Shown here in pieces: positions 6,503 to 59,332 of a stretch of 64,000 nucleotides of DNA. Every line of letters starts with the position of its first letter. The first letter of the stretch is position 1. The notes beneath the pieces are model-generated. The model did no database searches and was not told where the DNA came from. It was given only the letters and a program-made list of their open reading frames with translations. Location of the stretch: positions 31,796 through 95,795 of IMG/VR virus record IMGVR_UViG_3300042197_000642. The stretch is one strand, 5' to 3'. A program made the position numbers and the translations under genes. The stretch comes from a virus.

Positions 6503-8197
6503 TTAACCTGCTATTCCGCCTGAGGCATTGATTGTAAGTACTCCTACTTCAGGTAGCTCATTAAACTCGCAGGTTACATCGGATATAACCACGCCAGTTG
6601 CTGTTCCTGAAGGAGAAACCGCTGTTGATGGTACGTTAGTAGCTGTTAAATTATATGAAAATGTATTTGAACTTGTTGCAGTAATATAGTATCTACCATT
6701 AAACACAGTATCAACACCAGTAATGCTTACAGTTTCTCCAACTAAAAAGTTATGAGCAACACTAGTAGTAAGAGTAGCCACTCCTGTAGTTAAAACTTTA
6801 TTAGTTATAGAAGAAGTTTTAACCGCTGTTTGTTTTGATAATAAAACTGGTGTTACTTGTAAAACACCGCTTATGCTTGATACCGTTTCTAAAACATCAC
6901 TTAGTTTAATGGTATCGCCAAACACAACATTGTCTATATCTAATAGTAAATTTAAATCATTTTCTATTTGAGTTCTAATTGCAGAAGTCTTATACTGAGG
7001 GGCAACCGTTACGTCTACCGTTATATCAATTTTTGCATAAGATGGTGGTTGCACTGTTACAGTAGTATTTGGAGGACATTTATCTATATAGTACTCTAAT
7101 AATCTATTAGCAATTGTATTAAATATAGCTGTCGGATTTAGTGAACCATCAATACCACGATCACCAAATAAAGAAATATATACAGTTACATTAGAATAAA
7201 CATTTGCTTTAGCAACAGCTTTTGATATACCTGTTACTTGCAAGGCTAAGCTTGCGTAATCTGCTAAAGATACCGCTCTGTTTAATGCTTTTAAACTAGC
7301 AGGAGCATTAATTCTAATTGAGTCTGTAGACTCTTCGTCAGCCCCCGCTACAGCCGCAGACTGATTATTAACCGATAATCCTGCATTTGAGTTAGTAACA
7401 ATATAAGTAAGGGTATTAGCAGAAACGTTTCCTGAATCTCCACCGCCAACTCTGTAAGACGCATATATTTCCGCACCAGAAGGCGGTATTCTTCCACTAA
7501 CGTTGTCGCCAAAAGACACATAAGTAATACCATCAGCATCTGTGTTTATAACAAATACTGGGTCACTTCCAGCGTAATCAATTATATAAGGAACTTGATT
7601 ATAGGTAATTCCGTTAACACTTATTGAGACGCTACTTTCAATAATTGAAGTTTCTGAAAGTTCAAAAGTTTGACCAGAAGCTCCGTTTGAAGTGCCAATT
7701 AATTCATCAAATATACTTTCGCCTTGAGTGGCGACAACTGTTGCGCTTCCGTTTACTGTTCCTACTTTAGCTGGAACAGATATAGATGCAGCGGTTTCAA
7801 ATATGATTTGCGTAGACTCTCCATTAACTATAGAAGTAGTTGCTACTTGAGTAAGGGCGGGTACAGTTATTGTACCCGAACTACTATTTTGAAAAGTTAA
7901 CTCAACAAGAGCTGCTGTTTTTTGTGTTGGTACATACCCTAATAGCGATGCAATTTGCAATACGCTGTTTCTTTGACTTGCTGTAGTAATAAAAGACTCA
8001 TTAGTAGATCTATCAATATTGTAATTAAGTAAGTCGCCTACGTAAGAAAACAATTCTAATAAAACAATACCAAAGTCTGCAGCATTTCGTGAGGACCACT
8101 CTGGGGCATAGAGCGGGATTAAATCAAGCAAATCTTGTCTAATAGACGTGTAGTCTCTAGATGTATAATTTACTTGAGGAATAAAATTAGTACTCAC
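6503..8197 (-). CDS. baseplate J / T4 gp6-like wedge subunit
   Basis: NYTSRDYTSIR, DFGIVLLELFSYVGD, FGDNVSGRIP, GADEES..SIR, RAVSLADY. Confidence 0.9.
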   Translation of the reverse strand: MSTNFIPQVNYTSRDYTSIRQDLLDLIPLYAPEWSSRNAADFGIVLLELFSYVGDLLNYNIDRSTNESFITTASQRNSVLQIASLLGYVPTQKTAALVELTFQNSSSGTITVPALTQVATTSIVNGESTQIIFETAASISVPAKVGTVNGSATVVATQGESIFDELIGTSNGASGQTFELSETSIIESSVSISVNGITYNQVPYIIDYAGSDPVFVINTDADGITYVSFGDNVSGRIPPSGAEIYASYRVGGGDSGNVSANTLTYIVTNSNAGLSVNNQSAAVAGADEESTDSIRINAPASLKALNRAVSLADYASLALQVTGISKAVAKANVYSNVTVYISLFGDRGIDGSLNPTAIFNTIANRLLEYYIDKCPPNTTVTVQPPSYAKIDITVDVTVAPQYKTSAIRTQIENDLNLLLDIDNVVFGDTIKLSDVLETVSSISGVLQVTPVLLSKQTAVKTSSITNKVLTTGVATLTTSVAHNFLVGETVSITGVDTVFNGRYYITATSSNTFSYNLTATNVPSTAVSPSGTATGVVISDVTCEFNELPEVGVLTINASGGIAG

Positions 8198-8594
8198 TTA
8201 GTCCCTCCAAAATAGCGTCTCCACTTCTTGTAAACAAACCATACTTTATACTTACTACATCATCTTCATTTGTTGGAAGTTTGTAAGTTACAGTAAACTC
8301 AAGTGTACCATCTTCTGGTTTTAAAACTTCTACTTTGTTTAACACTAAATCGGGAAGCCACTTAGAAAACCCGGCTCTTACCTCTGAAACAACTATAGAT
8401 TCGGCTTCTGATTCAGTTTCAAAAACGGAAGTTCTGGCTGCAGTTCCAAATGTAGGTACCATAACCCTTTCGTTGTATAGGCTCATAATTACACTTATGA
8501 CCCTATCTTGGTATATCTTTTTGTAATCTGTTGTATACCCAACTTCACCTGCAGCGGTAAAAGTAAAAGGCAAAGCAATGCATCTTTGCGACAT
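8187..8594 (-). CDS. baseplate gp25/gpW-like protein
   Basis: LPFTF...ERVMVPTFG...FE motif; lies between the spike gene and baseplate J. Confidence 0.85.
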   Translation of the reverse strand: MSQRCIALPFTFTAAGEVGYTTDYKKIYQDRVISVIMSLYNERVMVPTFGTAARTSVFETESEAESIVVSEVRAGFSKWLPDLVLNKVEVLKPEDGTLEFTVTYKLPTNEDDVVSIKYGLFTRSGDAILEGLSEY

Positions 8595-9277
8595 TACTCA
8601 GCTCCTATCCATACGGGAAAGTTAGGGTCTCCTGCTATAAACATTACCCAAACTATGGTTCCTGGTTGTGGTTTCCATTTTCCTATTAAGTTTATAGTAG
8701 CAATAATTCCTGGAGTTGCCGGCCCAATCCCTGCATTATCATGGCTTAAAAAGGTGTTGCTGTTACTTGCAGACGAGACAAATTGTATGTAATCCCCAGC
8801 ATCTAAGTCTAAAATTAATGATACGGTCATCGTTATTTCAGCGCCGCTTCCGGCTAATGTAATTTTGGTGTTGCTATCTGGAATGTCTATTCCGTTCTTT
8901 CTGTACCACATATTAGCAGTTCCAGTATTAGCGCTTGATTTAGTAAACATGCAAGAAAACTGAGCAAAGTAATCTCCTGTCTCTTCTACATAAATACGAG
9001 TTCCATCTAAGTAAGTTTTACTAGTGTCAAGCTCAAACCAGTTATTAACTACTGTAGGAGTATTAACCCCAATAGCTTGGTCTGCTATTGTGTAAAAAGT
9101 TCCATAAGGGTATTTAGACTGTCCAATACTTCCACTAGATGCCCTGACCCAATCAGTTACATTGTTGCCAAACAGTTGAGGAACTTTAATTCTTACACGC
9201 CCTTGACTTTCGGGGTCGTTAGAGTCAACAACTAAACCTTCGTATAATCCGTAATACCTGCGATCTGCATCTATCAT
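8594..9277 (-). CDS. baseplate gp5/gpV OB-fold protein with an inserted C1q/TNF-like domain
   Basis: YGLYEGLVVDSNDPESQGRVRIKVP...W and PQPGTIVWVMFIAGDPNFPVWIG. Likely start is MIDAD at 9277 (ATGA overlap with the hub gene). Confidence 0.8.
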   Translation of the reverse strand: MIDADRRYYGLYEGLVVDSNDPESQGRVRIKVPQLFGNNVTDWVRASSGSIGQSKYPYGTFYTIADQAIGVNTPTVVNNWFELDTSKTYLDGTRIYVEETGDYFAQFSCMFTKSSANTGTANMWYRKNGIDIPDSNTKITLAGSGAEITMTVSLILDLDAGDYIQFVSSASNSNTFLSHDNAGIGPATPGIIATINLIGKWKPQPGTIVWVMFIAGDPNFPVWIGAE

Positions 9278-10599
9278 TTTTTCAATAACCTTTTTATTAC
9301 AACCGGTGGTTTGTAGGAACTTGTAGGTTGAACTACTCTTAAGTCTCTTAAAGTACTGCTCCATTTAGGAGACATTGTTTGAGCCTTTTTATTATTTAGT
9401 TTGTTTAAAGATGAGTTAGATGTCTTTTTATAAAAACCGCTAACTTTTAATTTAGTTTTGTTTTTAGTTTTTGTGTTTCTAACATTTGGTTTTATAATTC
9501 TTTTTTCCTCAGAACTTGGGTTTTCAATTAATCCGAATCGATCCCAGTTGTTAGACTTTCCTAGAGCGTCAATACCTAATTCTAAAACTGTTGTATATAC
9601 TAAAGTGTTTATTCCTGTTCTTTCAATCTTATGTTCTAGCGATAAGATTACCCAGTACCCGCTATATTCAGAACCAACGCCAGAAAGGTATATAGGTAAA
9701 TCTGGTCTAAGATCTGGACTTCCTATTACTTCCGCATAACCTCGGTATCCAAAGCGTTGTCTTTCTTCAGCAGCTTTTGTTTCCCACATAGCAACTTCAG
9801 AGTTAGAAACTACTGTATTAACAGAAAATCTATCAAACTGTTCGGGAACAACATTCTTTCTAGAAGACCTTTTACTTTTTTGTTTTACATACTGAAGTTC
9901 AATTTTAGAAAACCTATCAACTCCGGCATAAGATAACGCAGATTTAGCATCATCTTCTTCATCTCCAAATTGTAGACTTTCTCCAATAATAGGTCTAAAA
10001 CTATAAGTGTCTGTTCCTCCTAAAGTTTCAACAGTGCTCATAGTAAATCTTTTTGCATAAGCTCTATTTTCAGAATAGTCTTTTGATAATGGATAGAAGT
10101 ATAAAGACGTGTTTTCTGCTCTTAAGGTATATCCTATTTTTTTAGCTAACCACACAAGCAATTGCCAGTCAGTTCTTCCGGCTTGAGCTATTTGAGAAAA
10201 CACTCTTTTATGAGGTTCAACAAAGTAAGAAAACTCATATTTACGAGCAATCTTTTTAAGAACTTGGTCTGCAGTTACATTTGTATAAATAGTTTGAGAT
10301 GTATTTTTCATAACGTAAGACGCTCCAATAATATGTACTTCTACACTTCGCTCTCCTGGAGAATATATTGGTTTTATATGATGTACATACCCGTTAAACG
10401 TTTTAGTAGATGAACCAAGAGTATTTAAAGTAATTACTACTGGAGACATAGGTTTTACGTCGTAATAGTCTACTTCCCAATCTTTAAATAATATTATTGT
10501 GTATTCATGCTCATATCTTGCTTGTTTTAAATTAAACTCGTATACTAAACTAGGTCCTGACACACTATATGGAAAGTCTACAGTTACATATTTAAACAT
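9274..10599 (-). CDS. baseplate hub protein (gpD/gp27-like)
   Basis: TADQVLKKIARKY, QAGRTDWQLL..LA, GSPDLRP, YSGYWVI..LEH. Confidence 0.8.
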   Translation of the reverse strand: MFKYVTVDFPYSVSGPSLVYEFNLKQARYEHEYTIILFKDWEVDYYDVKPMSPVVITLNTLGSSTKTFNGYVHHIKPIYSPGERSVEVHIIGASYVMKNTSQTIYTNVTADQVLKKIARKYEFSYFVEPHKRVFSQIAQAGRTDWQLLVWLAKKIGYTLRAENTSLYFYPLSKDYSENRAYAKRFTMSTVETLGGTDTYSFRPIIGESLQFGDEEDDAKSALSYAGVDRFSKIELQYVKQKSKRSSRKNVVPEQFDRFSVNTVVSNSEVAMWETKAAEERQRFGYRGYAEVIGSPDLRPDLPIYLSGVGSEYSGYWVILSLEHKIERTGINTLVYTTVLELGIDALGKSNNWDRFGLIENPSSEEKRIIKPNVRNTKTKNKTKLKVSGFYKKTSNSSLNKLNNKKAQTMSPKWSSTLRDLRVVQPTSSYKPPVVIKRLLKK

Positions 10600-10876
10600 T
10601 TAACAAAATCTTTACTTTAGTACCCGCAGGTATAGTTAAAGTGTCTTTAATTTGAGGATTAAGCTCTGGTATTAACCACCATAATTTAGGGCTTTTATAA
10701 AATCTATTAGCTATTTGGTCTAACCTTTCGTCTTCTACCACAGTATGTTCTAAGTATTGAATAATTCCAAATGTAGAAAACTCATAGAAAACTACCGGTA
10801 ACGCATCTCCATTAACCTCAGTAGTAACAAAATCTACCAATGCGTTATCGTATCTAGACCCTCTATAAATTGCCAT
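10592..10876 (-). CDS. LysM-like baseplate protein (gpX/gp53-like)
   Basis: ERLDQIANRFYKSPKLWWLIPELNP...IPAGTKVKI. Confidence 0.85.
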   Translation of the reverse strand: MAIYRGSRYDNALVDFVTTEVNGDALPVVFYEFSTFGIIQYLEHTVVEDERLDQIANRFYKSPKLWWLIPELNPQIKDTLTIPAGTKVKILLNV

Positions 10877-15687: not shown

Positions 15688-17178
15688 TTACGCCGTAGTG
15701 ACGGTGGTTCCGCCATCATACTGACCAATTTTAATGATTACGAACTCAGCTGGTCGCTGTAATGCTACACCAATCTCTATATTAACTTCTCCGTTATCAA
15801 TAGAAGTTTGTGAGTTTGTAGTTGCGTCACACTTAACAAAGAAAGCTGCATCTGGTGAAGAACCGGCTAACCCGCCTTGTCCCCAGAACTGTGTTAAGAA
15901 TGAAGCACAAGTATTAGTAATTTGACGCCACAATCTAGAGTCGTTTGGCTCAAAGACTGCAAACTTAGTTAAGTCACTTAATGATTTGCTTAAGTAAATT
16001 AAAGTTCTACGAACTGGAATGTATTTGTCAACATAACCTGGCTTTAAGGTTTTAGCACCCATTACAACGATACCAGCGCCTGGTATTGCTCTAATAGCAT
16101 TAACTGGTGCTGCGGCTGAGTTTAAACTATCTAATTCAGAATTAGATAATGGGTTAACTCCAGTAGACCCAGCAATACGAGCGCTTAATCCCGCTGGAGC
16201 TTTAAATACACCTCGTGAAGCATCAGTTGAAGCGTATAAACCAGCAACTGCAGCTCCTACGTTACCTGAAGTTGACGCATTTGCAATAATTGGATCTGGT
16301 ATTCCAATATTTGGATAGTAAACAGCTGCGTAAGAGCTAGATGTGTAAGATGCTGCTCTAGTTAATTGATTTGCAACTGTATCGTTTAATCCATCAATAA
16401 TTAAGAAACCATCTTTTCTTTCTTCGCAATACTGGATTAAAGTATTTACAGTAGAGGCATCTACATATCCTGGAGCATTAAACAATAAAGAAGATTGAAT
16501 TAAATCAAACTCTTCAAAAGAAGCTAATACGTTAGCTCCAGTTATTGCAGATCCATTTAAACCACCAGTTAATGGTTGATTAGTAATAACAGCTGGGTTT
16601 TTAGTAGCTCCTGTACTTGAAGAAGCAGAATCAATTAAAAGAAGATAATTTGATTTGCTGTTAATAAAGTTAGGCGCGTATCTAGCATCTGGATATGACA
16701 TAGTTAAATCTGTATATCTTTCAACAATATTAACAGGGTCTGTGCCACCAAAGTAAACTGTTAAATCAAAAAGCCCTGTAGTTGATGAGTTAGATACACT
16801 TATGTTTATGCTATTACCCCAAGTTCCACTGTTTTTAGCATTAACTACCATTGTGTCATCTGGAGTTGACGCTCTATCTAATAAAGTTCTAGCAGCCGGG
16901 GCAGCGCCAGATCCAATAGTTCTATTTACATAGCAAGCTCCTCCACCATTTTGGAAGAATAGATTTACTGCTATATGTAGGTTTAAATTGCTTGAATTCT
17001 CTAAATAAGTTCCATAGAGATTTACAAACTGAGTCCAAGACGTTATTAATGTTGGAACGCCTGGACCTCTAACGGCACTTCCAACAAACGCAGCTATAGT
17101 GTTTGCGTTTGGTCCAACTACTGATTGGACTGGGTTTAGCGTTTCTTCAACGTATACACCCGGACGTAGGTATGTCAT
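15688..17178 (-). CDS. tail sheath protein
   Basis: YLRPGVYVEE, FFQNGG, RGVFKAPAG, YIPVRR, VFEPND..LW, PAEFVII. Confidence 0.95.
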   Translation of the reverse strand: MTYLRPGVYVEETLNPVQSVVGPNANTIAAFVGSAVRGPGVPTLITSWTQFVNLYGTYLENSSNLNLHIAVNLFFQNGGGACYVNRTIGSGAAPAARTLLDRASTPDDTMVVNAKNSGTWGNSINISVSNSSTTGLFDLTVYFGGTDPVNIVERYTDLTMSYPDARYAPNFINSKSNYLLLIDSASSSTGATKNPAVITNQPLTGGLNGSAITGANVLASFEEFDLIQSSLLFNAPGYVDASTVNTLIQYCEERKDGFLIIDGLNDTVANQLTRAASYTSSSYAAVYYPNIGIPDPIIANASTSGNVGAAVAGLYASTDASRGVFKAPAGLSARIAGSTGVNPLSNSELDSLNSAAAPVNAIRAIPGAGIVVMGAKTLKPGYVDKYIPVRRTLIYLSKSLSDLTKFAVFEPNDSRLWRQITNTCASFLTQFWGQGGLAGSSPDAAFFVKCDATTNSQTSIDNGEVNIEIGVALQRPAEFVIIKIGQYDGGTTVTTA

Positions 17179-37848: not shown

Positions 37849-39561
37849 TTACCTTTGATAATCTTCAGGTACCTTTCTCTGTGGTAGCACTGTTCCGTAA
37901 GCTTCGGTTACTAACTTGTTTCTTAAGTCAGCCTCACCCATGTCTGCTTGCATTAGGGCGTCATCAATTTGAGCAATAGGCTGTCCAGCCATTGCTTCTC
38001 CATTTGGACCGGCAACCGCGGTTGCTGGTGTAAATCCTTTACCATCTGGGGATGGTGTGGTTCCGGTCAAATCTGCAATTTCTTGTTCAATTTGAGTTTG
38101 TAATAGTTTTAACGCACCATCAGCCGTTGCATCGTCTAATAGCTCTTGTCTAATCTCATTAAGTTTATCTGTTGGGAATTCCTCACCTAAAGTACGCAAT
38201 GCGCCTTCTTTAGACTCTAACCCAAGTGAAAGCATAGACTGAACCTCATTAAGAGCAATTAACTTGTCTAAAGGTAGAGGTTGTGGAAACTGAACATATG
38301 TACGATAAGTTAAAGGGTCATTTGGATCTAGTCGATCTATCTGACCTTTCTTTAACTTAGGGTTAATTGTTGGGTTCCAAACAAGCATTTCTGGTTCTTT
38401 TACTGCAAGACTTAAAATAATAAGTTCGTTAATGCGTTCTAATCCACGAGCGTACTGAACAATCTTTTGATGATAACGATTCATCAAAGGTTGAAACTGA
38501 ATAGCTAGCGCTACACCTGATGTATTTGAAATAGGTTGAGCTTGTCCTAAGGCTGTTTCAGGAACACCAATCATTTCATGCATTGACTTTTTAAGAGTAG
38601 CTAAGAAATCCATAGCACCTTTTAGACCCTGACCGCCACCTTCTAAGTTTTCAACTCTAGCGTCTTTAGGCAGACCACCCCATACTTTGTTAGCACCTTT
38701 TTCTAGTTGTGATGCTTTCGCTCCAATGATGACAGTAACCGGCGCGGCATGGTAATTAACAATATCAGCAATGTCAGTAGCAGTTTCATTGTAAGAGCGG
38801 TTAAGAGAAATAATGTCATGGCAATCACTAAGGCCCCAAGGAGAACCACTGACACGCACATTTGGAATATGAACAATGGGAATAGTGCCAAGCGGATTAG
38901 GGCGGGAATCGATAAGCTCATCATTAATGTACTCCTCAATAATGTCATCAGTTAAGATTTCTGTATAAGTAAATACTTGACGAGTACCTTCAAGAGAAGT
39001 GCCCCAAAATCGATATTTAAGTTTAAAACGAATAAGGCGTTCACGATCGTGTGGATGAAACTCTGGAAAACAAAAAGAAGAATTAAGAGGAAGAATACGT
39101 ACACGGCCAGAGTGTTGACGGCCAGATGGATCAACCCAAGCTTCTTCATAAGCAATCTTTACAAAACAGTCACCAGATACAGCGCCTTGTTGCCCCATTT
39201 CCCAAAGAACTGTTGCTTTATTGTTATCTACTTCCCATACTCTTTCAAGTAAGTCTGGAACAATTGCTTCAGTTTCTCTTGGACTTCTAAATCCTACACC
39301 CTTACTAAAAGTAAAGTTAATAACAAAGTCTGTAAATGCACGATAATAATTAAATGCCATTTGAGACTCACCAACTTGGCGTCGATAAGAATAGTGATGA
39401 CCTAGGTACATAGCCCAGTTTAAAGAATAGCGGTTTAAACGAGGACCATGGACTTCAAACTCTTCGTCTGCTAACTCCACCAAACCAAGTGGTGAAATAG
39501 AAATAGTTAAATCAGATGAGGCTGCTCTATACGAAGGTGGTGAGAAGTCTATAGATGCCAT
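37849..39561 (-). CDS. portal protein (SPP1 gp6-like)
   Basis: NPLGTIPIVHIPN, WGLSD, SGVAL motifs; lies between terminase and scaffold. Confidence 0.9.
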   Translation of the reverse strand: MASIDFSPPSYRAASSDLTISISPLGLVELADEEFEVHGPRLNRYSLNWAMYLGHHYSYRRQVGESQMAFNYYRAFTDFVINFTFSKGVGFRSPRETEAIVPDLLERVWEVDNNKATVLWEMGQQGAVSGDCFVKIAYEEAWVDPSGRQHSGRVRILPLNSSFCFPEFHPHDRERLIRFKLKYRFWGTSLEGTRQVFTYTEILTDDIIEEYINDELIDSRPNPLGTIPIVHIPNVRVSGSPWGLSDCHDIISLNRSYNETATDIADIVNYHAAPVTVIIGAKASQLEKGANKVWGGLPKDARVENLEGGGQGLKGAMDFLATLKKSMHEMIGVPETALGQAQPISNTSGVALAIQFQPLMNRYHQKIVQYARGLERINELIILSLAVKEPEMLVWNPTINPKLKKGQIDRLDPNDPLTYRTYVQFPQPLPLDKLIALNEVQSMLSLGLESKEGALRTLGEEFPTDKLNEIRQELLDDATADGALKLLQTQIEQEIADLTGTTPSPDGKGFTPATAVAGPNGEAMAGQPIAQIDDALMQADMGEADLRNKLVTEAYGTVLPQRKVPEDYQR

Positions 39562-40494: not shown

Positions 40495-42069
40495 TTATTT
40501 ATAAAATGGAGATGACGTAACCTCAACACTAGGCATTGTCATATCCATAGTTAAAACTACTGCTATAGCTAGGCTATCTGCATAATCATCATGAGCATGT
40601 GCCTCTTCTGGGGCATGGGCTAAAAAGTTAGGCCCCTGAAACTTAGTTTCAAGATCCGCCATCTGTTGGTAAAACCGCTTCCAAGTTCTTAACCTTCTAG
40701 TCTTAGCGTGAGCGGGCCACCCAATCATTTTTCTATCAATTAAAGCTTTTAAATGTTTCCACCTTTTTGATTGTGCGGATTGACTACTCTCTAGAGCGTG
40801 TACTTCAGATCCCGGTAATAGAAGTTTTAATCTTTGAGCTACGGCATCACCTACACCATTAGCGTCTACACCTACAGATAGAACATCGTAATTACTTAAA
40901 AAAGTAGTAATTTGAAAATACTGATCTTCCCAATCATCTCCTTGTATCTCTAACCAGTTTAAAACTCTATGATCAAAATAGCCAAACTCATCAGGCCTAT
41001 CCCAGTCTACCCAAAGAACTGTTACTACTGTTGAGTCTATTTTTCTAGCAGGATCTATACCAACTACAACTGGGGAACGGTGCCAGGCTTTTACTACTTC
41101 TTGCGAGGTGTCACCTAGCTCATCTAATATAGATGATGTAATAAACATACCTCGTTCAAGAAGCCACTTACAGTTGTAAGACATCTGAAACTCATCAGAG
41201 TCCTCCCCAATACGAAGCATCTCTTTTCTTATAAACTTACCGTAGTTTTCATTTACTTTAGCTACGTCTCGCCAATCCCATTCAAAATGGTTTTGTCTAG
41301 TTCCCCTACTAGTCTGTCTACGTTTGTTTAATTGAATAGACCTGTAAAAGTTGTTTTTGCTAGTAGTTGGGGTTCCGGTTTTAACCATAGTTCCTGAGTA
41401 GTATGCAAGCATAGGAGATATAGATTTAGATACAACAAAGTCGTCTGCTTCTTGGCACTCGTCAATAACTACTAAATGAAAAGACTTGGATTCAATCTTT
41501 GCGCGAGGGTTAGCTGTCATCATCATTAAAGTAGAACCAGAGTTCTTAAGTTTAATTTGTCGTGTAACTCCAGGGACTTTTCCTAAAGAGTCATCAATCT
41601 CTGGGTCACCTAAAATCTCTAATGCCCGTTCACTAGTAAGTCTACTAATTGTTCTACCAAATAGTGTTTCTACTTGCCCCTCAACTGGAGCAAACATACC
41701 AACCCATAATCCATCTTTAAACTTACCTAATAAATCTGGGTACATCTTTGCAAGTCGTGGTAGCAAAACCATTAATGTTGCAACAGTATTAGCAATAGTT
41801 TCAGATTTACCAGACTGACGAGCTGCAAGAGCAGTAACTTCTTCACCGTCATTAATAATTATAGATTCCATTATACGTCTAGATAAAGGTTCTTGATATG
41901 AGTGTAGTTCATGCCCAACTAATGCTGTCATAAATGTTACGCATCGGTCTACTAGTTTTTTGACAAACTCTTTAGAAAGCTCGTCGAGTTCATCTACCTC
42001 TTCTTCTTCTAAAAAAGGTACTTCATCTTCTAGTAGCTCATCTTCTTCATAAAATACTTGTTCTGACAT
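40495..42069 (-). CDS. terL: terminase large subunit
   Basis: ARQSGKS Walker A, VVIDECQ Walker B, GTP motif, VGIDPA nuclease, HDDYADSLA. Confidence 0.95.
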   Translation of the reverse strand: MSEQVFYEEDELLEDEVPFLEEEEVDELDELSKEFVKKLVDRCVTFMTALVGHELHSYQEPLSRRIMESIIINDGEEVTALAARQSGKSETIANTVATLMVLLPRLAKMYPDLLGKFKDGLWVGMFAPVEGQVETLFGRTISRLTSERALEILGDPEIDDSLGKVPGVTRQIKLKNSGSTLMMMTANPRAKIESKSFHLVVIDECQEADDFVVSKSISPMLAYYSGTMVKTGTPTTSKNNFYRSIQLNKRRQTSRGTRQNHFEWDWRDVAKVNENYGKFIRKEMLRIGEDSDEFQMSYNCKWLLERGMFITSSILDELGDTSQEVVKAWHRSPVVVGIDPARKIDSTVVTVLWVDWDRPDEFGYFDHRVLNWLEIQGDDWEDQYFQITTFLSNYDVLSVGVDANGVGDAVAQRLKLLLPGSEVHALESSQSAQSKRWKHLKALIDRKMIGWPAHAKTRRLRTWKRFYQQMADLETKFQGPNFLAHAPEEAHAHDDYADSLAIAVVLTMDMTMPSVEVTSSPFYK

Positions 42070-44807: not shown

Positions 44808-45386
44808 ATGCTAAATATCAGAAGGAGGTTTTCTATTATGGTGGTTGCAGCAATATTTGCTGGGCATTGCACACCAGCCATTGGGCTGGAAGCACCTATC
44901 GTAGAGAAAACCCAAGGCGAAATCGCCAAGAATCCTTTAGAGCTATACGCTCTTAAGAAAAAGCTAAATGACGATGAGTTAATTGGCTTACTGCAAGAAG
45001 TTGGGTTTAAGGGAAAGTCCCTTAAAATGGCTTATGCAGTTGCAAAAAAGGAGTCCAACGGACGCCCCAAAGCGCATAATGATAATGTAAAAACTGGAGA
45101 CAACTCCTATGGTATATTTCAAATTAATATGCTTGGAGAACTTGGAGAACAACGTAGAAAAAAGTATGGTTTGTCCAGCAACCGTGATTTATTTAACCCT
45201 GTCACTAATGCACAAATTGCTTACCACATGAGTAATAAAGGTAAAGTTTGGACTGCATGGAAAGTGGCATATGGAAAAAACAATGGACCTCGGTTTGAGA
45301 TGTTCTATAAGAACATCCTTACAGACGTTTGTATTGCACCGCTAACCCCGCTTAAATCGGAGAATCGAAAGGATAACTTAACTTAA
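44808..45386 (+). CDS. secreted lysozyme-like lytic transglycosylase
   Basis: N-terminal signal peptide; KES catalytic Glu; SYGIFQINM; AAGGAG RBS. Confidence 0.85.
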   Translation: MLNIRRRFSIMVVAAIFAGHCTPAIGLEAPIVEKTQGEIAKNPLELYALKKKLNDDELIGLLQEVGFKGKSLKMAYAVAKKESNGRPKAHNDNVKTGDNSYGIFQINMLGELGEQRRKKYGLSSNRDLFNPVTNAQIAYHMSNKGKVWTAWKVAYGKNNGPRFEMFYKNILTDVCIAPLTPLKSENRKDNLT

Positions 45387-45687: not shown

Positions 45688-45715
45688 CAAAGGCCGGGAG
45701 CAATCCCGGCCTTTG
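45688..45715. terminator. bidirectional intrinsic terminator
   Basis: CAAAGGCCGGGA-GCAA-TCCCGGCCTTTG between convergent genes. Confidence 0.8.
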
Positions 45716-45732: not shown

Positions 45733-46461
45733 TTAAGAAGCGAAGTAAGGTGCAATTGTAATTGTTGCAGTTGAAGCAACTGAACCTGCTCCTGCTGCTG
45801 TTGACTGAGTTTTAATAGTTCCAGCCTTAGCCATAACCTTTGCTGTACCTGTATCTGCGGTAGACGCAATATTATCATTGGTCTTAGCAAATGTGAAGGT
45901 GTTAGTTGCAGCTCCTGTAATAGTGTATGTACCGTTTAGTACTGTAGTAGTTAAGCCAGCAATAACAACTGATTGACCTGTGGCATAGCCATGTGCATTA
46001 GCTGTAATTGTTGCAACGTTGTCAGTTAGAGCTACGTTGCTAATTGCTGGGGTTACTGCTGAAGATGTAGTAATGTTAGCTGTTTCGTAACCAGCGTCAC
46101 GAAGAGCATCAAGTGCCAAAGCTGTGGTTAGTCCAATAACGTTTGGTACGTTGATATAAGCAACACCTGAGATGTAAGCGCCATCTCCTGAAGCATTGGC
46201 TGGGAATCCAGCATAAGCAGCCTCAGCTACTGCGTGGTTTGAAAGTGTTGGGTTCAAGCGTGAGCTTGGGTATACAGTGTATCCGCCCCATCCGTAGTTC
46301 TGTGAAGCGTTTGCCGCTACAGCTACAGTTGAAGGTGCGGTTGTGTAATCTGCCGTTGTTGTACGTTCGTCGTTTGGTTGCATTGGGAAGTTGCCCCATA
46401 CAAAGTCAACGAATACGTTACCAGCGGTATCAAGAAGATTACCGTTGTTATTTGTTGCCAT
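45733..46461 (-). CDS. virion-type protein with a split PASTA domain
   Basis: VPNVIGLTTALALDALRDAGY...[~70 aa insert]...AGTIKTQSTAAG. Confidence 0.65.
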   Translation of the reverse strand: MATNNNGNLLDTAGNVFVDFVWGNFPMQPNDERTTTADYTTAPSTVAVAANASQNYGWGGYTVYPSSRLNPTLSNHAVAEAAYAGFPANASGDGAYISGVAYINVPNVIGLTTALALDALRDAGYETANITTSSAVTPAISNVALTDNVATITANAHGYATGQSVVIAGLTTTVLNGTYTITGAATNTFTFAKTNDNIASTADTGTAKVMAKAGTIKTQSTAAGAGSVASTATITIAPYFAS

Positions 46462-46511: not shown

Positions 46512-46540
46512 AGTATCTAAGAGGATTTGAGGTATGTCAG
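46512..46540 (-). promoter_or_regulatory. putative late promoter CTGACA-N17-GATACT
   Basis: Recurring class. Confidence 0.5.
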
Positions 46541-46698
46541 CGCTTATTAAAGGGTTTAAACAGCCTTTTTACAAAGTCTTTAATAGAGTGCCACTTGGCT
46601 TCTATTTTTCTTTCTAGTTCAGCTTCATGAGTTTCTTCATAGTGATCTGACCCAAAGTAAGGACCACTCATTTGTTTATAGTGGTGGTGAGGAGACAT
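46537..46698 (-). CDS. small His-rich peptide containing GPYFG (53 aa)
   Basis: MSPHHHYKQMSGPYFGSDHYEETHEAELERKIEAKWHSIKDFVKRLFKPFNKR*; starts 3 nt after the upstream stop; not in track. Confidence 0.55.
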   Translation of the reverse strand: MSPHHHYKQMSGPYFGSDHYEETHEAELERKIEAKWHSIKDFVKRLFKPFNKR

Positions 46699-46701
46699 AA
46701 T

Positions 46702-47445
46702 TTAATTATAATTCTTTTTGACCCATTTTAACTTTTTATAAGCTCCATAAAATGGAAAATCTTTAGGTCTATATGTAGCGTTGTTCATAGAACGCCTAAC
46801 ATGTTGCTGATGAGGCGTAGGCATCTCAAACTCACTAAACCAATTTACCCTTTGTATTGGAATAACTTGAATAAAAGGAGTTCCTTTAGGAACAATTCCG
46901 CTATAACCTTTCTTTACAAAAAAAGGCATACGACCACTAATAGTTGCTACATCTGAATCTATAATTCCAGATGGTGTGTAGTAAGGTAGCTCAAACCGAT
47001 TCATTGGTTGAGTTACTAGCAAACTCCATCCAGGAGGAGCTTCCATACCCCAAATAGTTTGCCAATGAAAGTGGTTTTCCCAGTAGCCTTCTGGAACGTG
47101 AAATCCCGCCATCTTTTCTCTTATTTGTAAAAAAGGTTTATAAGCCTCTTCTGAAACAATAATAGTACAACCTTTTTTAGTAGATATAATTTCTATATCG
47201 CATGGAAGCGGAAATAAATAACCTGAGGTCATGGCATCAAAAAAAGGTATACATGATTTAAACCCGATTGGTATTGTATGACCCTGCTCATGAATTTTAA
47301 CAAGATCTTCATTTTTTACTTTATGGGTAAAGAAGTCTGCTTCTCTGTACCATTGAGGCATTGAACTAGCCGCGGGTACTGGTTTTGAAGAGTCGTCAGT
47401 TAAACATATTTCTTGATCAGCGATGAACTTTATAGTTACATCCAT
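46702..47445 (-). CDS. conserved phage protein (DUF6065-like; uncertain) adjacent to a 2OG oxygenase
   Basis: PVPA...PQWY, KSCIPFFDAMTSGY, PPGWSLLVTQPMN, SGIIDSD, KGTPFIQVIP. Confidence 0.55.
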   Translation of the reverse strand: MDVTIKFIADQEICLTDDSSKPVPAASSMPQWYREADFFTHKVKNEDLVKIHEQGHTIPIGFKSCIPFFDAMTSGYLFPLPCDIEIISTKKGCTIIVSEEAYKPFLQIREKMAGFHVPEGYWENHFHWQTIWGMEAPPGWSLLVTQPMNRFELPYYTPSGIIDSDVATISGRMPFFVKKGYSGIVPKGTPFIQVIPIQRVNWFSEFEMPTPHQQHVRRSMNNATYRPKDFPFYGAYKKLKWVKKNYN

Positions 47446-47448
47446 TTT

Positions 47449-48084
47449 TTAATAATCTTTTCTTCTAATATTCTTTTCGTGGTACCTATCGGTGTAATCA
47501 AACATTGTTACGGCAGAATACTTAATGCCACCAGATACCGGCATAGCCCTATGGCGATATATGTAGTTTGATGGGAATAAGAAATGGTCTCCTCTTTTAG
47601 GTTTTACCGTTAGATCAAACTCTTCAAACCAAAGTTCTCCACCCTCATAATCATCGTTTAAGTACAAAACAGATGAAAGAGTACATGTAAATGTAGGACC
47701 ATGATCTGGATGAGTATTAAAGAACTCACCTTCCCCATATCTAACAAAGTTTATAACTTGTTGCCACTCACATCGTAACTTGTGAATCGGCTCGTAATGG
47801 TTTTTGCACTCATGAAGAATAGAGTTAACTGGGTTCCAAATAGCTGCTAAGTCTTTGTTTTTTGAGTTTATAGGCCAGCAGTCTAATTTACCTATTTTAA
47901 AATCTACACATTTTCTGTGTTGTATAAGCTCTTCTGCATCACCAACTCTTGCTCTATTCCATTTACGAAAGGGTGTACTTCCATCTAAAGACGACTCAAG
48001 CATACTTGGAATATCTAAGTCTGCAGGAATAGTGTTTTTATACAAGTATATTCCTACTGCTAGTTTTTCAAATTCGTAATTCAT
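47449..48084 (-). CDS. 2OG-Fe(II) oxygenase, prolyl-4-hydroxylase-like
   Basis: HPD, YLNDDYEGGEL.F, FPSNYIYRH, K at the 2OG-binding position. Confidence 0.85.
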   Translation of the reverse strand: MNYEFEKLAVGIYLYKNTIPADLDIPSMLESSLDGSTPFRKWNRARVGDAEELIQHRKCVDFKIGKLDCWPINSKNKDLAAIWNPVNSILHECKNHYEPIHKLRCEWQQVINFVRYGEGEFFNTHPDHGPTFTCTLSSVLYLNDDYEGGELWFEEFDLTVKPKRGDHFLFPSNYIYRHRAMPVSGGIKYSAVTMFDYTDRYHEKNIRRKDY

Positions 48085-48123
48085 GTTCTGCTCCCAATTG
48101 TGTTAGTAGTTGTTTCCCTCTAC

Positions 48124-49269
48124 TTACTTGTTATGTGACAATAAGTTTTCAGTAAAGTAAACGTCGTACGGTTCAACAGAAATATCATACACGGTTACCC
48201 CATCTTTTTCAAAAGTACGAAGAGTATCTTCCACAGGTACAAAGGTAGGAATACCATCTAAATGAGGCTCAATGTTGTCTGTATTGGCCTTTAGAGCTAA
48301 TACTTCGTCATTAGTAGTTATAAATTGAGCTTGAACAAACTCATATTCATTGTTCCTTTTTACTAACACTAAATGTTCAGGCGTGTAAAACACACCGTTT
48401 ATTCTTAATAACTCATAAGCTTTAAAGTTACGTATATTAGTAATATTAGTTTCTTTTATACCTTTTATAGTAAAAGTACTACTTAACCAATAATGAACAT
48501 TAATTTTATCCTCATCAAGATCAATTTCTTCAACATCAATAGATATTAACTTATCTGCTATTGTCAAGTCTTGAGCAGCTTTAGCTGGACCATTTGAAGT
48601 AAATACTTTTGTAGTACCAAGCATGCAAACGATTCCACCGGGACCAAAGTATGGTCCAAAAGATGGAGGTGGAACATAGAAGTCACCAAACGAAGGACCA
48701 AACGATGGTCCAACTGGAGGAGGAGGTGGGGGAGGTGTGTACCCAGGAGATGCTCCAGAGAATGAAGGACCAGGATTGTTTGCATCAGGCGCAAAGTAAG
48801 GTGGAACGTATGGACCAACGCCGAAGTAAGGACCAGGAGGTGGGTTGCTTCCATCAAAGTAAGGTTCAATAAATTGAAAAAATGGACCAAACGAAGGGCC
48901 AAATGAAGGACCGAAGGAAGGACCTGCAGCTTGATACGTAATAGTGTTTAGTTGAATGTTTTGAGTTGGATGTACTAAGTCATCTGCTTGTGGTGTTGTA
49001 GAGGCAACATACCCGCCAGAAAACGATTGGTAGGTTGTGTCATTAGATGTAGTATTTGATTTTGTTACAGTAAACCCTAAACCAGTTAACGTAGCCGCAG
49101 CGGTGTCATAAGCTTGACCAACTACATTTGGTACTCTTTTTGCAGCAAGTCTCCAAGTACCGTCTTGTTTTACCCATAAAGCATCAACGGTTCGCCAAGT
49201 GTTCCCAACTTTGGTATAGACTTTAGCTACAGTTCGCCAAATATTGGAGATCCGATAGATTATAGACAT
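48124..49269 (-). CDS. fibre-tip protein: W-repeat N-terminus, PASTA domain, Pro-x-Phe repeats, C-terminal Hint domain
   Basis: VPNVVG PASTA; 12 P-[S/Y/F]-F motifs; Hint block A CMLGTTKV (Cys215), block B TPEH, blocks F/G VYDISV...LLSHN then K-stop. Confidence 0.8.
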   Translation of the reverse strand: MSIIYRISNIWRTVAKVYTKVGNTWRTVDALWVKQDGTWRLAAKRVPNVVGQAYDTAAATLTGLGFTVTKSNTTSNDTTYQSFSGGYVASTTPQADDLVHPTQNIQLNTITYQAAGPSFGPSFGPSFGPFFQFIEPYFDGSNPPPGPYFGVGPYVPPYFAPDANNPGPSFSGASPGYTPPPPPPPVGPSFGPSFGDFYVPPPSFGPYFGPGGIVCMLGTTKVFTSNGPAKAAQDLTIADKLISIDVEEIDLDEDKINVHYWLSSTFTIKGIKETNITNIRNFKAYELLRINGVFYTPEHLVLVKRNNEYEFVQAQFITTNDEVLALKANTDNIEPHLDGIPTFVPVEDTLRTFEKDGVTVYDISVEPYDVYFTENLLSHNK

Positions 49270-49284
49270 TAAATCTCCTAAAGG

Positions 49285-49413
49285 TTATACGTATTTAATC
49301 CAGATATCGCCATCTATGCCGTTAGCTGATTGTGGATCAGTAGTTGCGGTTAATATATTAGTTCGTCCTTGGTTGTTTACTCCAAAGATAATTGGACCAG
49401 TTACTTCAGTCAT
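49285..49413 (-). CDS. mini fibre protein (42 aa) ending GIDGDIWIKYV
   Basis: TAATG-coupled to the upstream gene; GDIW fibre motif; not in track. Confidence 0.6.
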   Translation of the reverse strand: MTEVTGPIIFGVNNQGRTNILTATTDPQSANGIDGDIWIKYV

Positions 49414-49745
49414 TAAGCTACCTCGACTCCTGAAACAAGAATATTTAACACAGCCGATGTTCCGGCTTTAGCAACAATAAAGTCTCCTGCTTCTAAAACT
49501 TGACTACATTTAAAAGTAAGAGTTGAATAACCAGCAATAGTAATTTGGCAAAGTATTTCGTTGGTTTGCGCCACACTCGCTCCGGAAGGAACAAGGTTTA
49601 CAGTTACTGTAGCAGCGGTGTTACTAGTATTACTAACTAGTATTTCTTTAATTACAGTTTTAACACCACTAGAGGTATAAAGTGTTGAATTTGTGGTTGC
49701 AAGCTGAGTGATGGACCCTAGTCGTCTAGGTGTGTAGGTTGCCAT
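49413..49745 (-). CDS. fibre adaptor-type small beta protein
   Basis: LYT...VIKEILVSN...VLEAGDFI...SGVEVA; GAAAGGA RBS. Confidence 0.6.
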   Translation of the reverse strand: MATYTPRRLGSITQLATTNSTLYTSSGVKTVIKEILVSNTSNTAATVTVNLVPSGASVAQTNEILCQITIAGYSTLTFKCSQVLEAGDFIVAKAGTSAVLNILVSGVEVA

Positions 49746-50995: not shown

Positions 50996-51556
50996 TTATT
51001 TACCGCAGGTTGGACAAACTTCCGATGCTTTAGCTTTCGCTGGGGCGGCCCCTGCTCCTTTAAACTTTGGACGACCAAACCCTACAATTGATATTTGTAT
51101 TTTCTTTGGGTTCTTCTTGTAAGCACGAAGCTTCTTGCAGACCTCGCCACCATTTCTTTGACTACCTTTTGCATCTCCAGATGTATTACCTTCAATGCAC
51201 CAAACCGTTCCGTCTTCATTGTCTTTAATAACAATACCAACATGGCTAATGCGATCTACACCATCTGCTGGAAAGTCAAAGTAAGCAATATCTCCTGGCT
51301 CTGGATCAGCAAGGTCACCATCAATCCAAGCATTTTTCTTTTTAAATGCAGCAGCACCGCCTGGAGTATAAACAGTATTTGGTACTTTTACTCCCGCTTC
51401 ATTTGCACACCACATTACAAAAGATCCGCACCAAGGCTGGAAATTAGCCTTGGTAAACGCACCATACTTAGTTTCATTGTCTTTAGGACCTTCTACGGTT
51501 CCAACTTCAGCTTTTGCAACTTCAACAAGTCGCTCTGCTGTGCCTTGATTAGCCAT
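50996..51556 (-). CDS. CHAP-domain endolysin/peptidoglycan hydrolase
   Basis: PWCGSFVMWC, PGDIAYFD, SHVGIV, IEGNT. Confidence 0.9.
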   Translation of the reverse strand: MANQGTAERLVEVAKAEVGTVEGPKDNETKYGAFTKANFQPWCGSFVMWCANEAGVKVPNTVYTPGGAAAFKKKNAWIDGDLADPEPGDIAYFDFPADGVDRISHVGIVIKDNEDGTVWCIEGNTSGDAKGSQRNGGEVCKKLRAYKKNPKKIQISIVGFGRPKFKGAGAAPAKAKASEVCPTCGK

Positions 51557-51558
51557 AG

Positions 51559-51969
51559 TTATTCTTTATCCCAATCTGTGTCAACTGGTTGCTCAGCTGG
51601 CATTTGACCATCTGGCTTTGCTAGTCGACGGGCTTTAGCCTCATCAATCTCTGCTTCTAGTTTCTTATCAGCTTGGGTATTCTTAGCATCCATTTCTTTG
51701 TTTGCTAATTGTGCAGACATAACGTCTTTAGCACCTGACTGGCCAATGAGTAAACCAGCAAGCGTTCCTGTAATAAATGTAGCTACGCTACCCAATACGT
51801 TAAAGAACATCTTATCGTTCTCTGATTGGGCACCAATTGGTTGAGTTACAAATAAAAGACCATAGAGGATTCCTATGGAAGTTAAAAATAAGATTGATCC
51901 TAAAGTTATGCCAAGAATGAATTTTAATCTGGCGTCTAGGTCAGCTGGTGAAAGGCGTTGTTTACTCAT
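51559..51969 (-). CDS. 2-TM membrane protein (holin candidate)
   Basis: Two TM helices; immediately upstream of the endolysin. Confidence 0.6.
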   Translation of the reverse strand: MSKQRLSPADLDARLKFILGITLGSILFLTSIGILYGLLFVTQPIGAQSENDKMFFNVLGSVATFITGTLAGLLIGQSGAKDVMSAQLANKEMDAKNTQADKKLEAEIDEAKARRLAKPDGQMPAEQPVDTDWDKE

Positions 51970-58705: not shown

Positions 58706-59332
58706 TTAATCTACTTTAATAAGATCTTTGTTACTGTTGTAGTACTCATCATGGAACTCTGGAACCACGACCTTAGAAGGAGTGTGGTGCCAGAAAGAAG
58801 ACAAGGTATACCTAATGGTTTTTTTAATTTCGGTTACCCCATGTTCATGAATCTCATCTCCTGGGTGAACGGCTAACATGCCAGCTTTAGGAGTTATGTA
58901 GTGATTAAACTTTGGATAGTAAGTTTGACCCCCTTCATAATCATCATTTAAATAGATTATCACTCCATATTTACGATGTGAGTTCCAAGAGTTTTCTTCC
59001 CCTAGACCCTTCATATCATCCCAGTGTGTAGGTTGAGATAGACCTACAGGCCACCTAACTAGATCTATGCTGTCTGGAAATGTAGGTAAATCTAGATCAT
59101 ATTGAGATACAAGTTTTTTTCTTATTCTAGGAAATATTTCATGCCTTATTAAGGAGTAAGCAGGTTTACTTACTAAACTTAATTGAGGAAGGTGTATTAC
59201 ACGTCCCTGCCAGAAAGGATGAGTATTCTCTAAATTCCACTGCTCTTCAGTTATAGATATAGCAGCATTAACTAATACGTAGGTTTCATCCTTAGATAAG
59301 AAGTCCTCTACAGTGGAGGCTTTAAACTCCAT
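58706..59332 (-). CDS. 2OG-Fe(II) oxygenase, prolyl-4-hydroxylase-like
   Basis: EDFLS..E, HWD, YLNDDYEGG, HGV, RYT...FW. Confidence 0.85.
   Translation of the reverse strand: MEFKASTVEDFLSKDETYVLVNAAISITEEQWNLENTHPFWQGRVIHLPQLSLVSKPAYSLIRHEIFPRIRKKLVSQYDLDLPTFPDSIDLVRWPVGLSQPTHWDDMKGLGEENSWNSHRKYGVIIYLNDDYEGGQTYYPKFNHYITPKAGMLAVHPGDEIHEHGVTEIKKTIRYTLSSFWHHTPSKVVVPEFHDEYYNSNKDLIKVD

Follow-up and report, generated by a model that had tools for sequence, protein, structure and literature searches.

Hint domains are known from inteins, from Hedgehog proteins, and from bacterial toxins and adhesins. In bacterial intein-like (BIL) domains (Amitai 2003, Dassa 2004, as summarised in PMC7765530) and in Hedgehog proteins the Hint domain removes itself through an acyl shift at its N-terminal junction (PMC7765530), and among phages an autocatalytic self-removal has been described for the peptidase S74 domains, which stand at the C-terminus of fibre proteins such as the K1F endosialidase and the T5 L-shaped fibre and are considered to aid their assembly (PMC7824862). 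Here we report on a 381-residue protein that ends in a Hint domain and is encoded together with a prolyl 4-hydroxylase (P4H)-type 2-oxoglutarate (2OG)/Fe(II) oxygenase and a DUF6065-like protein in a viral stretch of 64,000 nucleotides (hereafter the window; positions 31,796 to 95,795 of IMG/VR record IMGVR_UViG_3300042197_000642, a complete 95.8-kb myovirus genome). The protein belongs to a large family of C-terminal Hint domains that is essentially viral, and aromatic/Pro repeat proteins of its kind recur immediately upstream of arrays of the same enzymes. Taken as a whole, the explanation that we favour, although with reserve, is that it is a self-cleaving precursor of a surface appendage whose repeat arm would be hydroxylated by the neighbouring oxygenase. 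The parts of the protein and the two enzyme genes are located in the window as follows.

48124-49269, minus strand: gene of the 381-residue Hint protein (open reading frame, ORF)
49138-49269, minus strand: Trp-rich beta-hairpin N-terminus, residues 1-44 (PHROG matches and model)
48949-49137, minus strand: PASTA domain, residues 45-107 (PF03793 and fold match)
48628-48933, minus strand: Pro/Gly/Phe low-complexity segment, residues 113-214 (composition and motif count)
48130-48627, minus strand: Hint (intein-like) domain, residues 215-380 (profile, fold and residue conservation)
48625-48627, minus strand: codon of Cys215
48127-48129, minus strand: codon of Lys381, the lone residue after the Hint Asn (stop codon 48124-48126)
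47449-48084, minus strand: gene of the 211-residue P4H-type 2OG/Fe(II) oxygenase (ORF and PF13640)
46702-47445, minus strand: gene of the 247-residue DUF6065-like protein of predicted dUTPase fold (ORF, phrog_7084 and predicted fold)

The terminal Hint domain and the protein that carries it

The Hint segment opens with Cys215, carries the block-B sequence T296-P-E-H299 and closes with LLSH379-N380, after which Lys381 is the only residue before the stop codon; all 13 relatives (47-90% identity) keep Cys215, His379, Asn380 and Lys381, and nearly all keep His299. A profile of seven Hint sequences found the Aes123 PolB1 intein among the PDB sequences (E 7e-7, the alignment taking in blocks F and G), and a PDB search with the single sequence of the Hint part returned no relative (best E 1.6). 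The top Foldseek matches of the Hint model were all Hint-fold proteins, led by the BIL domain 2lwy (E 5e-6) and including inteins, Tetrahymena BIL2, Hedgehog 1at0 and 6tyy, and VIA superimposed the gp41-1 intein with Z 9.9 (root-mean-square deviation (rmsd) 1.7 Å over 68 residues, spanning model residues 212-380), with Cys215 matched to the first residue of the intein and Asn380 to its end. By sequence criteria the domain is very probably genuine and catalytically competent. No Hint-less allele of the gene was found among the close relatives. Canonical protein splicing is argued against for the Cys/His-Asn type to which the window Hint belongs, because such domains mostly lack a nucleophile at +1, and for the 381-residue protein it is excluded; in the 13 relatives the +1 residue is invariably Lys381, not Cys, Ser or Thr, followed by the stop.

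Upstream of the Hint domain the protein is composed of three parts. Residues 1-44, modelled as three beta-hairpin strands, find counterparts only in the N-terminal parts of phrog_36019 (E 8e-6) and phrog_25859, both unannotated, and the Hint protein of a distant locus (L054) shares both the Trp-rich N-terminus and these PHROGs. Residues 45-107 form a PASTA domain (PF03793, E 5e-9, 36.4 bits vs a cut-off of 23.2), the model of which matches the PASTA domain of M. tuberculosis PknB (VIA Z 10.2, rmsd 1.6 Å over 65 residues). The third part, residues 113-214, contains 30 Pro, 18 Gly and 15 Phe among its 102 residues, and harbours a run of seven Pro and 12 P-[SYF]-F motifs at residues 117-206, where composition-preserving shuffles of the repeat segment gave a mean of 1.35 such motifs and at least 12 in none of 20,000 trials. 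This segment is hypervariable among the relatives, being rich in indels and poorly conserved in length and sequence, and is modelled as disordered (pLDDT < 50); the AF2 model of the full-length protein is of poor quality (pLDDT 51). Twelve close homologues are 47-90% identical to the protein by alignment and 40-88% by BLASTP, and in four syntenic contigs it is the most divergent product of the gene block (41-46% identity vs 57-79% for its operon neighbours). The initial annotation, which had read residues 215-381 as a complete Hint domain lacking a +1 nucleophile and ending in a single Lys, preceded by a PASTA domain, twelve P-[S/Y/F]-F motifs and a Pro7 run, is borne out on each of these points.

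Among described systems the closest are A-type BIL domains (2lwy of C. thermocellum; 6tmm and 6y75, BUBL BIL2 of Tetrahymena), with which the window Hint shares the fold, Cys1, the TxxH motif, a His-Asn end without a +1 nucleophile, and residence in hypervariable, non-conserved host proteins instead of conserved housekeeping sites. Judged by sequence it thus displays the defining features of the A type, and by analogy self-cleavage at the N- or C-terminal side would be expected instead of efficient splicing. The phage domain differs in being terminal (0-9 residues follow it), whereas BIL domains are internal in secreted toxins and adhesins; in the almost exclusively viral distribution of its family; in that the 381-residue protein has no match to the Pfam models PT-HINT (PF07591) and Hint_2 at E ≤ 1; in the existence of a second catalytic type within the family, with Ser1 and a terminal [H/Y/F]-Asp; and in the aromatic/Pro repeats that regularly precede it. 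With the Hog/Hint region of Hedgehog proteins it has in common a C-terminal Hint domain at a Gly-rich junction, from which, by analogy, thioester self-excision would free an N-terminal cargo that is the functional product. Unlike Hedgehog, it has no sterol- or adduct-recognition region, Lys381 being the only residue after it, and it retains the intein-like His-Asn. The best functional analogy may be offered by the S74 intramolecular chaperones, likewise C-terminal domains of fibre proteins that are considered to assist assembly and then to remove themselves, and a chaperone role of the phage Hint is conceivable on this parallel. The two are unrelated in fold and chemistry (a Ser-Lys dyad vs the Cys/His/Asn of the Hint), and Pfam finds no S74 sequence match in the 381-residue protein.

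A viral Hint family and its repeat and enzyme partners

A profile of the Hint domain finds 965 clusters (50% identity) at E ≤ 0.001, 291 of them at E ≤ 1e-10. In the best 150 of these clusters the domain almost always closes the protein, which is 150-1588 residues long, and the median tail after it is 6 residues. Residues were counted in 154 domain matches from these 150 clusters plus the window protein. All matches that reach position 1 but one have Cys (71) or Ser (59) there, the exception being a Gly in the degenerate first domain of a two-Hint protein, and the block-B His is kept in 141 of the 154. The two ends of the domain co-vary, Cys1 occurring with His-Asn and Ser1 with [H/Y/F]-Asp or Tyr-Asn. 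In His-Asn members the +1 residue is Lys in 27/74 and Ser or Thr in 4/74; an exact ...HNK end is present in 16 proteins, and Lys followed by the stop recurs in distant clusters. In x-Asp members, which are of the Ser1 type, the +1 residue is Ser or Thr in 40/60. Because the nucleophile, the block-B His and the terminal residues are conserved family-wide, catalysis at the N-terminal junction is argued for.

The Ser1-type domains mostly have Ser after their [H/Y/F]-Asp (35/60) and tails of 3-4 residues, e.g., SVSI or SFSI (proteins P0121-P0265). In contrast to the Cys/His-Asn/Lys type, they might be capable of genuine splicing, with a very short C-extein. In P0160 and P0234 the Hint domain is present twice in tandem, and one copy is degenerate.

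The proteins to which the domain is attached vary. Among 94 family members the N-terminal partners include fn3 (24) and PASTA (23) as well as Ig-like and other adhesin-type domains, and the Hint parts themselves scatter across six Pfam Hint models, none of which is clearly theirs; at E ≤ 0.01, 32 members match Intein_splicing and 15 match PT-HINT, no more than other Hint models. The 80 residues that lead up to the Hint consist, in most members, of aromatic/Pro or aromatic/Gly repeats (FGFTP, FFPPYFPP, PYYNPPP, FSVFGFSP, GFYHGFYH or PSFG, for example), and in many Cys-type members a Gly run directly precedes Cys1. The PSFG/PYFG arm of the 381-residue protein is one variant of this general architecture. 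The family is essentially viral in distribution, near-identical search patterns returning 207 loci from IMG/VR vs a single locus from 185,579 species genomes. That lone locus (L172, JBBRXZ010000043.1) is a 9.6-kb contig in a metagenome-assembled genome binned to Candidatus Saccharimonadales, and is probably a phage contig that was binned with it.

The cultured carriers of the family are jumbo phages of Erwinia and Dickeya. The virion or tail protein gp108 of Dickeya phage AD1 (L001, 3017-4456; phrog_38766) ends in a Hint domain of the same family (26% identity, E 2e-5), and its relatives in Erwinia phages, which are annotated as virion structural or tail proteins, give Hint matches down to E 3e-6. 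It differs from the window protein in its N-terminal part, which is collagen-like (G-x-y) and not composed of PASTA and PxF elements, in its catalytic residues (Cys1, THEH and His-Asn, with Thr at +1 and a tail of nine residues), which make splicing conceivable, and in having no oxygenase nearby. In phages of ~110 kb the gene of the Hint protein comes straight after genes of tail fibres (PHROG tail-fibre matches of E 1e-16 to 1e-19) and closes that module. Several phages (L018-L025 and L032-L040) encode two Hint-ended proteins within ~6 kb, such as those at 3648-4631 and 9308-10597 of L025 and at 7883-10627 and 14856-16250 of L038.

Linkage of these proteins to oxygenases, which the initial annotation had proposed, was surveyed in two directions. 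The Hint-seeded survey comprised 75 IMG/VR loci from a Ser-type Hint profile, the earlier loci and the window; the Hint domains were clustered into lineages at 60% identity, and P4H-type oxygenase and/or DUF6065-like genes were scored within 8 kb on the same strand. Of 18 Hint lineages, 14 have such genes downstream (46 genes over 135 kb); upstream they occur in 3 of 17 (4 genes over 117 kb). Conversely, a DUF6065-seeded survey gave 41 arrays for which the upstream sequence was long enough; the start of 35 lies no more than 640 nt past a Hint gene, and the other six follow a repeat protein of the same type (FFPP[H/F]FPP) that has a short Cys-rich tail or a repeat end in place of the Hint. The association thus exists, is directional and is seen from both sides, and the initial annotation was right to expect it; its emphasis on the Hint domain needs amending, since the six Hint-less arrays make the aromatic/Pro repeat protein, rather than the Hint itself, the constant partner of the enzymes.

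The Hint-less repeat proteins upstream of oxygenase arrays (L139, 6791-7813; L155, 6620-7783; L163, 6712-7785; L164, 7130-8095; L167, 6782-7795), a Cys-rich tail of which reads ...VGGGNYYCPCCCCSGNNWFC, look like a natural variant of the module. Several lineages, including oxygenase-free ones, also encode a Cys-rich protein of 77-91 residues directly or one gene after the repeat or Hint protein (L008, 6636-6869; L009, 5200-5433; L139, 8327-8563; L155, 8314-8562; L163, 8310-8585), with the pattern ...DTRPWD...CxxC...CxxC...ECPxGKW and a zinc-ribbon-like look.

In the ~110-kb phages the arrays hold up to eight oxygenase paralogues and one or two DUF6065-like genes, and in many loci, mostly from the DUF6065-seeded survey, the closest homologue of the window oxygenase is one of two oxygenases that stand between the repeat protein and the DUF6065-like gene. 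The window terminase is not detectable in five complete ~110-kb genomes that carry the module, and a terminase family used as a control matches the window's genome and, only weakly, one of four others; because the terminase is undetectable in these carriers, the module is, by sequence, common to unrelated phage lineages.

The 211-residue oxygenase matches 2OG-FeII_Oxy_3 (PF13640) at E 4e-12 (47.3 bits vs a cut-off of 27). Its iron triad, H125-x-D127...H178, is invariant in 13 sequences, in all of which position 188 is Lys or Arg. The best solved relatives are the prolyl 4-hydroxylases of B. anthracis (8e-13) and of chlorovirus type (5c5t, 1e-9), followed by P3H1, the lysyl hydroxylase LH3, PiuC and PHD2, and the label P4H-like, which it had been given in the initial annotation, is justified by sequence. 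With the viral and bacterial P4H enzymes that act on Pro-rich repeats (chlorovirus 5c5t; Bacillus anthracis 5iax and 3itq) it shares the family, the HxD...H triad and the 2OG-binding Lys/Arg, and with the viral one its being virus-encoded beside a Pro-rich repeat protein. It differs in its candidate substrate, which is aromatic/Pro (PSFG and PYFG here, FFPP and FGFTP in relatives) and not collagen-like or (PAPK)n, in the up to eight paralogues per array in relatives, and in its partner of dUTPase fold. A second, divergent P4H-type oxygenase, 17% identical to the operon enzyme and with an intact triad, is encoded at 58706-59332 of the window (minus strand), and in relatives a further paralogue lies between the lysis genes and the operon (e.g., L003, 4004-4615).

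Proposed maturation of the precursor and competing explanations

We propose that the 381-residue gene product is a precursor from which a surface appendage of the phage is made, most likely a fibre- or whisker-like virion adhesin, composed of a Trp-rich beta-hairpin anchor, a PASTA domain of the peptidoglycan type and a hypervariable Pro/Phe/Gly arm. Cys215, aided by Thr296 and His299 of block B, would attack the carbonyl of Val214 in an N-S acyl shift, and the resulting Val214 thioester would be resolved by hydrolysis or by another nucleophile, releasing the 167-residue C-terminal part (the Hint and Lys381) and leaving a mature protein that ends in ...GPGGIV214; His379-Asn380 may also cyclise and drop the lone Lys381. 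From the sequence pattern we consider self-cleavage at the N-terminal junction likely and, with a little less assurance, we regard the mature product as probably a part of the virion. The translationally coupled oxygenase would most likely hydroxylate prolines (or other residues) of the repeat arm, a step that we advance tentatively, as possible rather than probable, and the dUTPase-fold DUF6065-like protein would be a conserved partner of the oxygenase.

All of the components are of known kinds (a BIL-like Hint, PASTA, P4H and a dUTPase fold), and what is apparently new is that they occur together, with fibre-like phage proteins ending in a Hint of either of two co-varying catalytic types, with aromatic/Pro repeats and with a directional linkage to hydroxylase arrays. 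In the open-access literature on Hint or intein-like domains in phage tail or virion proteins, on DUF6065 and on phage P4H with tail fibres we found no account of the module, nor of Hint domains as the regular C-terminal element of fibre-like phage proteins, and a prior description elsewhere is possible. The 381-residue protein and its enzymes constitute a candidate phage protein-tailoring system that is testable with few constructs. If the chemistry is confirmed, it would represent a second, independent route to self-cleaving fibre maturation besides S74, would supply a concrete protein substrate for many unexplained 2OG oxygenases of aquatic phages, and would make compact natural C-terminal self-cleaving tags of Cys and Ser type available.

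A number of findings weigh against this proposal. The single-sequence Pfam scores of the Hint part are below cut-off (Intein_splicing, E 0.0084, 16.4 bits vs 35.8; Hint, E 0.13), and its model is of low confidence (pLDDT 45-68). The gene block lies beyond the terminase gene and beside lysis-type genes, distant from the tail genes. Three Hint lineages (L008, L084 and L059) have no oxygenase nearby and a fourth (L053) has enzymes upstream only, and many of the surveyed loci come from related phages, so that the linkage counts are not fully independent. Some distant arrays contain a short-chain dehydrogenase (L047 and L054), to which L054 adds a methyltransferase and an APH-type kinase, a composition that suggests small-molecule chemistry. 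Lastly, the DUF6065-like protein has, according to its model, the fold of dUTPases and dCTP deaminases, and its homologue in Halovirus HSTV-2 (L169, NC_020159.1, 28132-29001, gene 40) adjoins genes of thymidylate synthase and DNA polymerase, which suggests a role of that homologue in nucleotide metabolism.

The evidence on the DUF6065-like protein is as follows. It matches phrog_7084 (E 9e-33) and has 95 homologous clusters, and it scores against DUF6065 (PF19541) with E 0.024 and 14.6 bits vs a cut-off of 26.6; relatives reach 19.3 bits, and one homologue (P0091) carries a DUF6065 assignment. By sequence it is a distant relative of DUF6065, not a member by the Pfam threshold, and the DUF6065-like label of the initial annotation is acceptable in that looser sense, to which the fold now has to be added. 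In a wide VIA search its AF2 model (pLDDT 91) had dUTPases, dCTP deaminases or viral proteins of dUTPase fold, such as pp71 of human cytomegalovirus and ORF10, as its top 22 matches (Z 9.4-5.3), scores falling to Z 4.0 by rank 24. The conserved motifs of the family are GIIDSD and KGTPxAQ, which we take to resemble dUTPase motifs III and IV; motif V was not recognised, and there is no match to the Pfam dUTPase model (PF00692). A profile of the family retrieved no relative from the PDB sequences, the resemblance coming from fold searches only, and a search of NCBIfam added nothing. Homologues in cultured viruses are confined to haloarchaeal tailed viruses (49 records). A cupin-type oxygenase, considered as another identity for the protein, was rejected in view of the dUTPase-like fold.

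This fold keeps alive the rival in which the enzymes form an auxiliary island of nucleotide, sugar or secondary metabolism that merely follows the fibre module and does not act on the Hint protein. To the dUTPase-like motifs, the gene neighbours in HSTV-2 and the additional enzymes of distant arrays may be added that the window's genome has no canonical dUTPase and that 2OG hydroxylase clusters of cyanophages have been read as systems for secondary metabolites or polysaccharide decoration (PMC7824862). We nevertheless consider this explanation unlikely, if serious: all 41 arrays that could be read far enough upstream are immediately preceded by an aromatic/Pro repeat protein, the association is markedly one-sided, the module recurs in phages with unrelated terminases, the nearest solved relatives of the oxygenase are protein hydroxylases, and the single oxygenase and single DUF6065-like gene that the window has between its PASTA proteins are too little for a pathway.

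The remaining alternatives concern the Hint domain itself, and we hold each of them to be improbable. A Hedgehog-like joining of the ...GPGGIV C-terminus to a nucleophile, be it a protein of the virion, an amine of the cell wall or the Lys set free, is the least so; in Hedgehog and BIL domains this intermediate is resolved by nucleophiles that are external or lie in the flanks (PMC7765530). Lys occurs at +1 or +2 in 54/74 His-Asn members and the Lys-stop end in distant clusters, the PASTA domain would bring the protein to peptidoglycan, and the Gly-rich stretches before Cys1 in many members are like the Hedgehog cleavage site. No acceptor is identifiable from sequence, however, the single residue after the Hint leaves no room for adduct recognition, and the Ser-type relatives would form an oxyester, which is less reactive than a thioester. 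A shade less credible still is a specific form of this chemistry, in which the terminal Hint would act as a one-shot ligase, its Val214 thioester being captured by a specific amine or hydroxyl (of the virion, of PASTA-held peptidoglycan or of the released Lys) and the enzymatically hydroxylated, 'sticky' aromatic/Pro arm being fixed covalently; if true, a bacterial virus would combine the logic of Hedgehog lipidation and a hydroxylation chemistry like that of mussel feet. That the Hint is a catalytically silent structural knob, a tip for receptor binding or oligomerisation kept on the mature protein, we think very improbable. No other part of the protein, which is hypervariable elsewhere, is as well conserved, and the block-B His is lost in 13/154 and the terminal motif in about 8/154 matches, but the position-1 nucleophile, the block-B His and the terminal His-Asn or x-Asp persist across 150 diverged clusters, and a purely structural role does not require the co-variation of Cys with His-Asn and of Ser with x-Asp. 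Hardly any credence is left for an ordinary mobile mini-intein, or its remnant, inserted near the 3' end of a fibre gene: although the closest sequence and fold matches are inteins, the Ser-type relatives often have Ser or Thr at +1 (in the 40/60 given above) and the AD1 relative with its Cys1...His-Asn-Thr and 9-residue tail could splice, the supposed C-extein in the window clade is one invariant Lys, there is no homing endonuclease, and the Hint is conserved while the host protein varies (PASTA, fn3, Ig, collagen), the opposite of intein homing into conserved sites.

Genomic setting of the gene block and its small reading frames

The remaining genes of the block, the features that flank it and the landmarks of the phage genome in the window are the following.

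49413-49745, minus strand: gene of a 110-residue protein (ORF)
49285-49413, minus strand: gene of a 42-residue protein (ORF)
46537-46698, minus strand: gene of a 53-residue His-rich peptide with GPYFG (ORF)
45733-46461, minus strand: gene of a 242-residue protein with a partial PASTA domain (outside the range of the initial annotation)
45688-45715, detected on the plus strand, with a palindromic stem: 12-bp GC-rich palindromic hairpin between the convergent 242-residue-protein gene and whiB
50996-51556, minus strand: CHAP/NlpC-P60-type amidase-like ORF (judged from its translation only)
51559-51969, minus strand: membrane-protein (holin-like) ORF (judged from its translation only)
44808-45386, plus strand: SLT transglycosylase (Pfam match)
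6503-8197: baseplate wedge gene
15688-17178: tail sheath gene
21-34 kb: collagen-like fibre genes
37849-39561: portal gene
40495-42069: large terminase gene

The six minus-strand ORFs that the initial annotation had grouped at 46537-49745 are all present and tightly packed, with a 1-nt overlap followed by gaps of 15, 39, 3 and 3 nt, and they lie, as it stated, far from the main tail genes, with baseplate and sheath at 6.5-17 kb, fibres at 21-34 kb and the block past the terminase. Its view of them as a self-contained operon of six genes does not hold, since a seventh gene probably belongs to the unit. This gene, for the 242-residue protein, begins 75 nt past the gene of the 53-residue peptide; its product has a partial PASTA match (Pfam, E 6e-5) and a weak resemblance to virion structural or tail proteins, and it is syntenic in four related contigs (L002-L005) with 68-71% identity. 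The genes of the oxygenase, the DUF6065-like protein and the peptide are thereby nested, with 3-nt gaps, between two PASTA proteins. The seventh gene is probably the last of a transcription unit that ends at the hairpin, itself a likely bidirectional terminator. The whole seven-gene block is syntenic in the same four contigs, all of them close kin. The amidase-like and holin-like ORFs and the SLT transglycosylase flank the block and place its PASTA proteins within a cell-wall-directed neighbourhood.

The 110-residue and 42-residue proteins had been labelled a fibre adaptor and a mini-fibre, names for which we find no support, both being conserved proteins of which the former matches unannotated PHROGs only (phrog_1276, E 2e-6). 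The 110-residue protein is 70-74% identical and syntenic in L002-L005 and belongs to a widespread unannotated viral family, the ESM Atlas containing many all-viral clusters of it and no Pfam family. The 42-residue protein shows 60-69% identity to its counterparts in three relatives, 24 of its positions being invariant, and ends in ...GIDGDIW(I/F)KYV, a GDxWxKY motif that resembles the C-terminus of a 264-residue protein (single-pair E 3e-6), the gene of which directly precedes the Hint protein gene in the distant locus L054. That the two ORFs are halves of a split larger gene was considered and rejected, the resemblance to the L054 protein being limited to the C-terminal motif of the 42-residue protein. 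A predicted complex of the 42-residue protein with residues 1-112 of the Hint protein scored 0.05, which speaks neither for nor against docking.

The 53-residue peptide contains a conserved S-[GA]-PYFG-S and is 64-79% identical, with the motif kept, in the four related contigs. Homologues are absent from all other retrieved loci, and the peptide is a clade-specific addition. Among the ORFs of the window GPYFG occurs only in this peptide and, twice, in the 381-residue protein, while the cognate Hint proteins of the four contigs have GPYF zero to one times. The peptide and its motif, which the initial annotation had singled out, are thus real, and their place in the general module is discarded, the peptide being confined to the phage's own clade. 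As to the host, the whiB gene and a GC content near 40% point to a low-GC actinobacterium.

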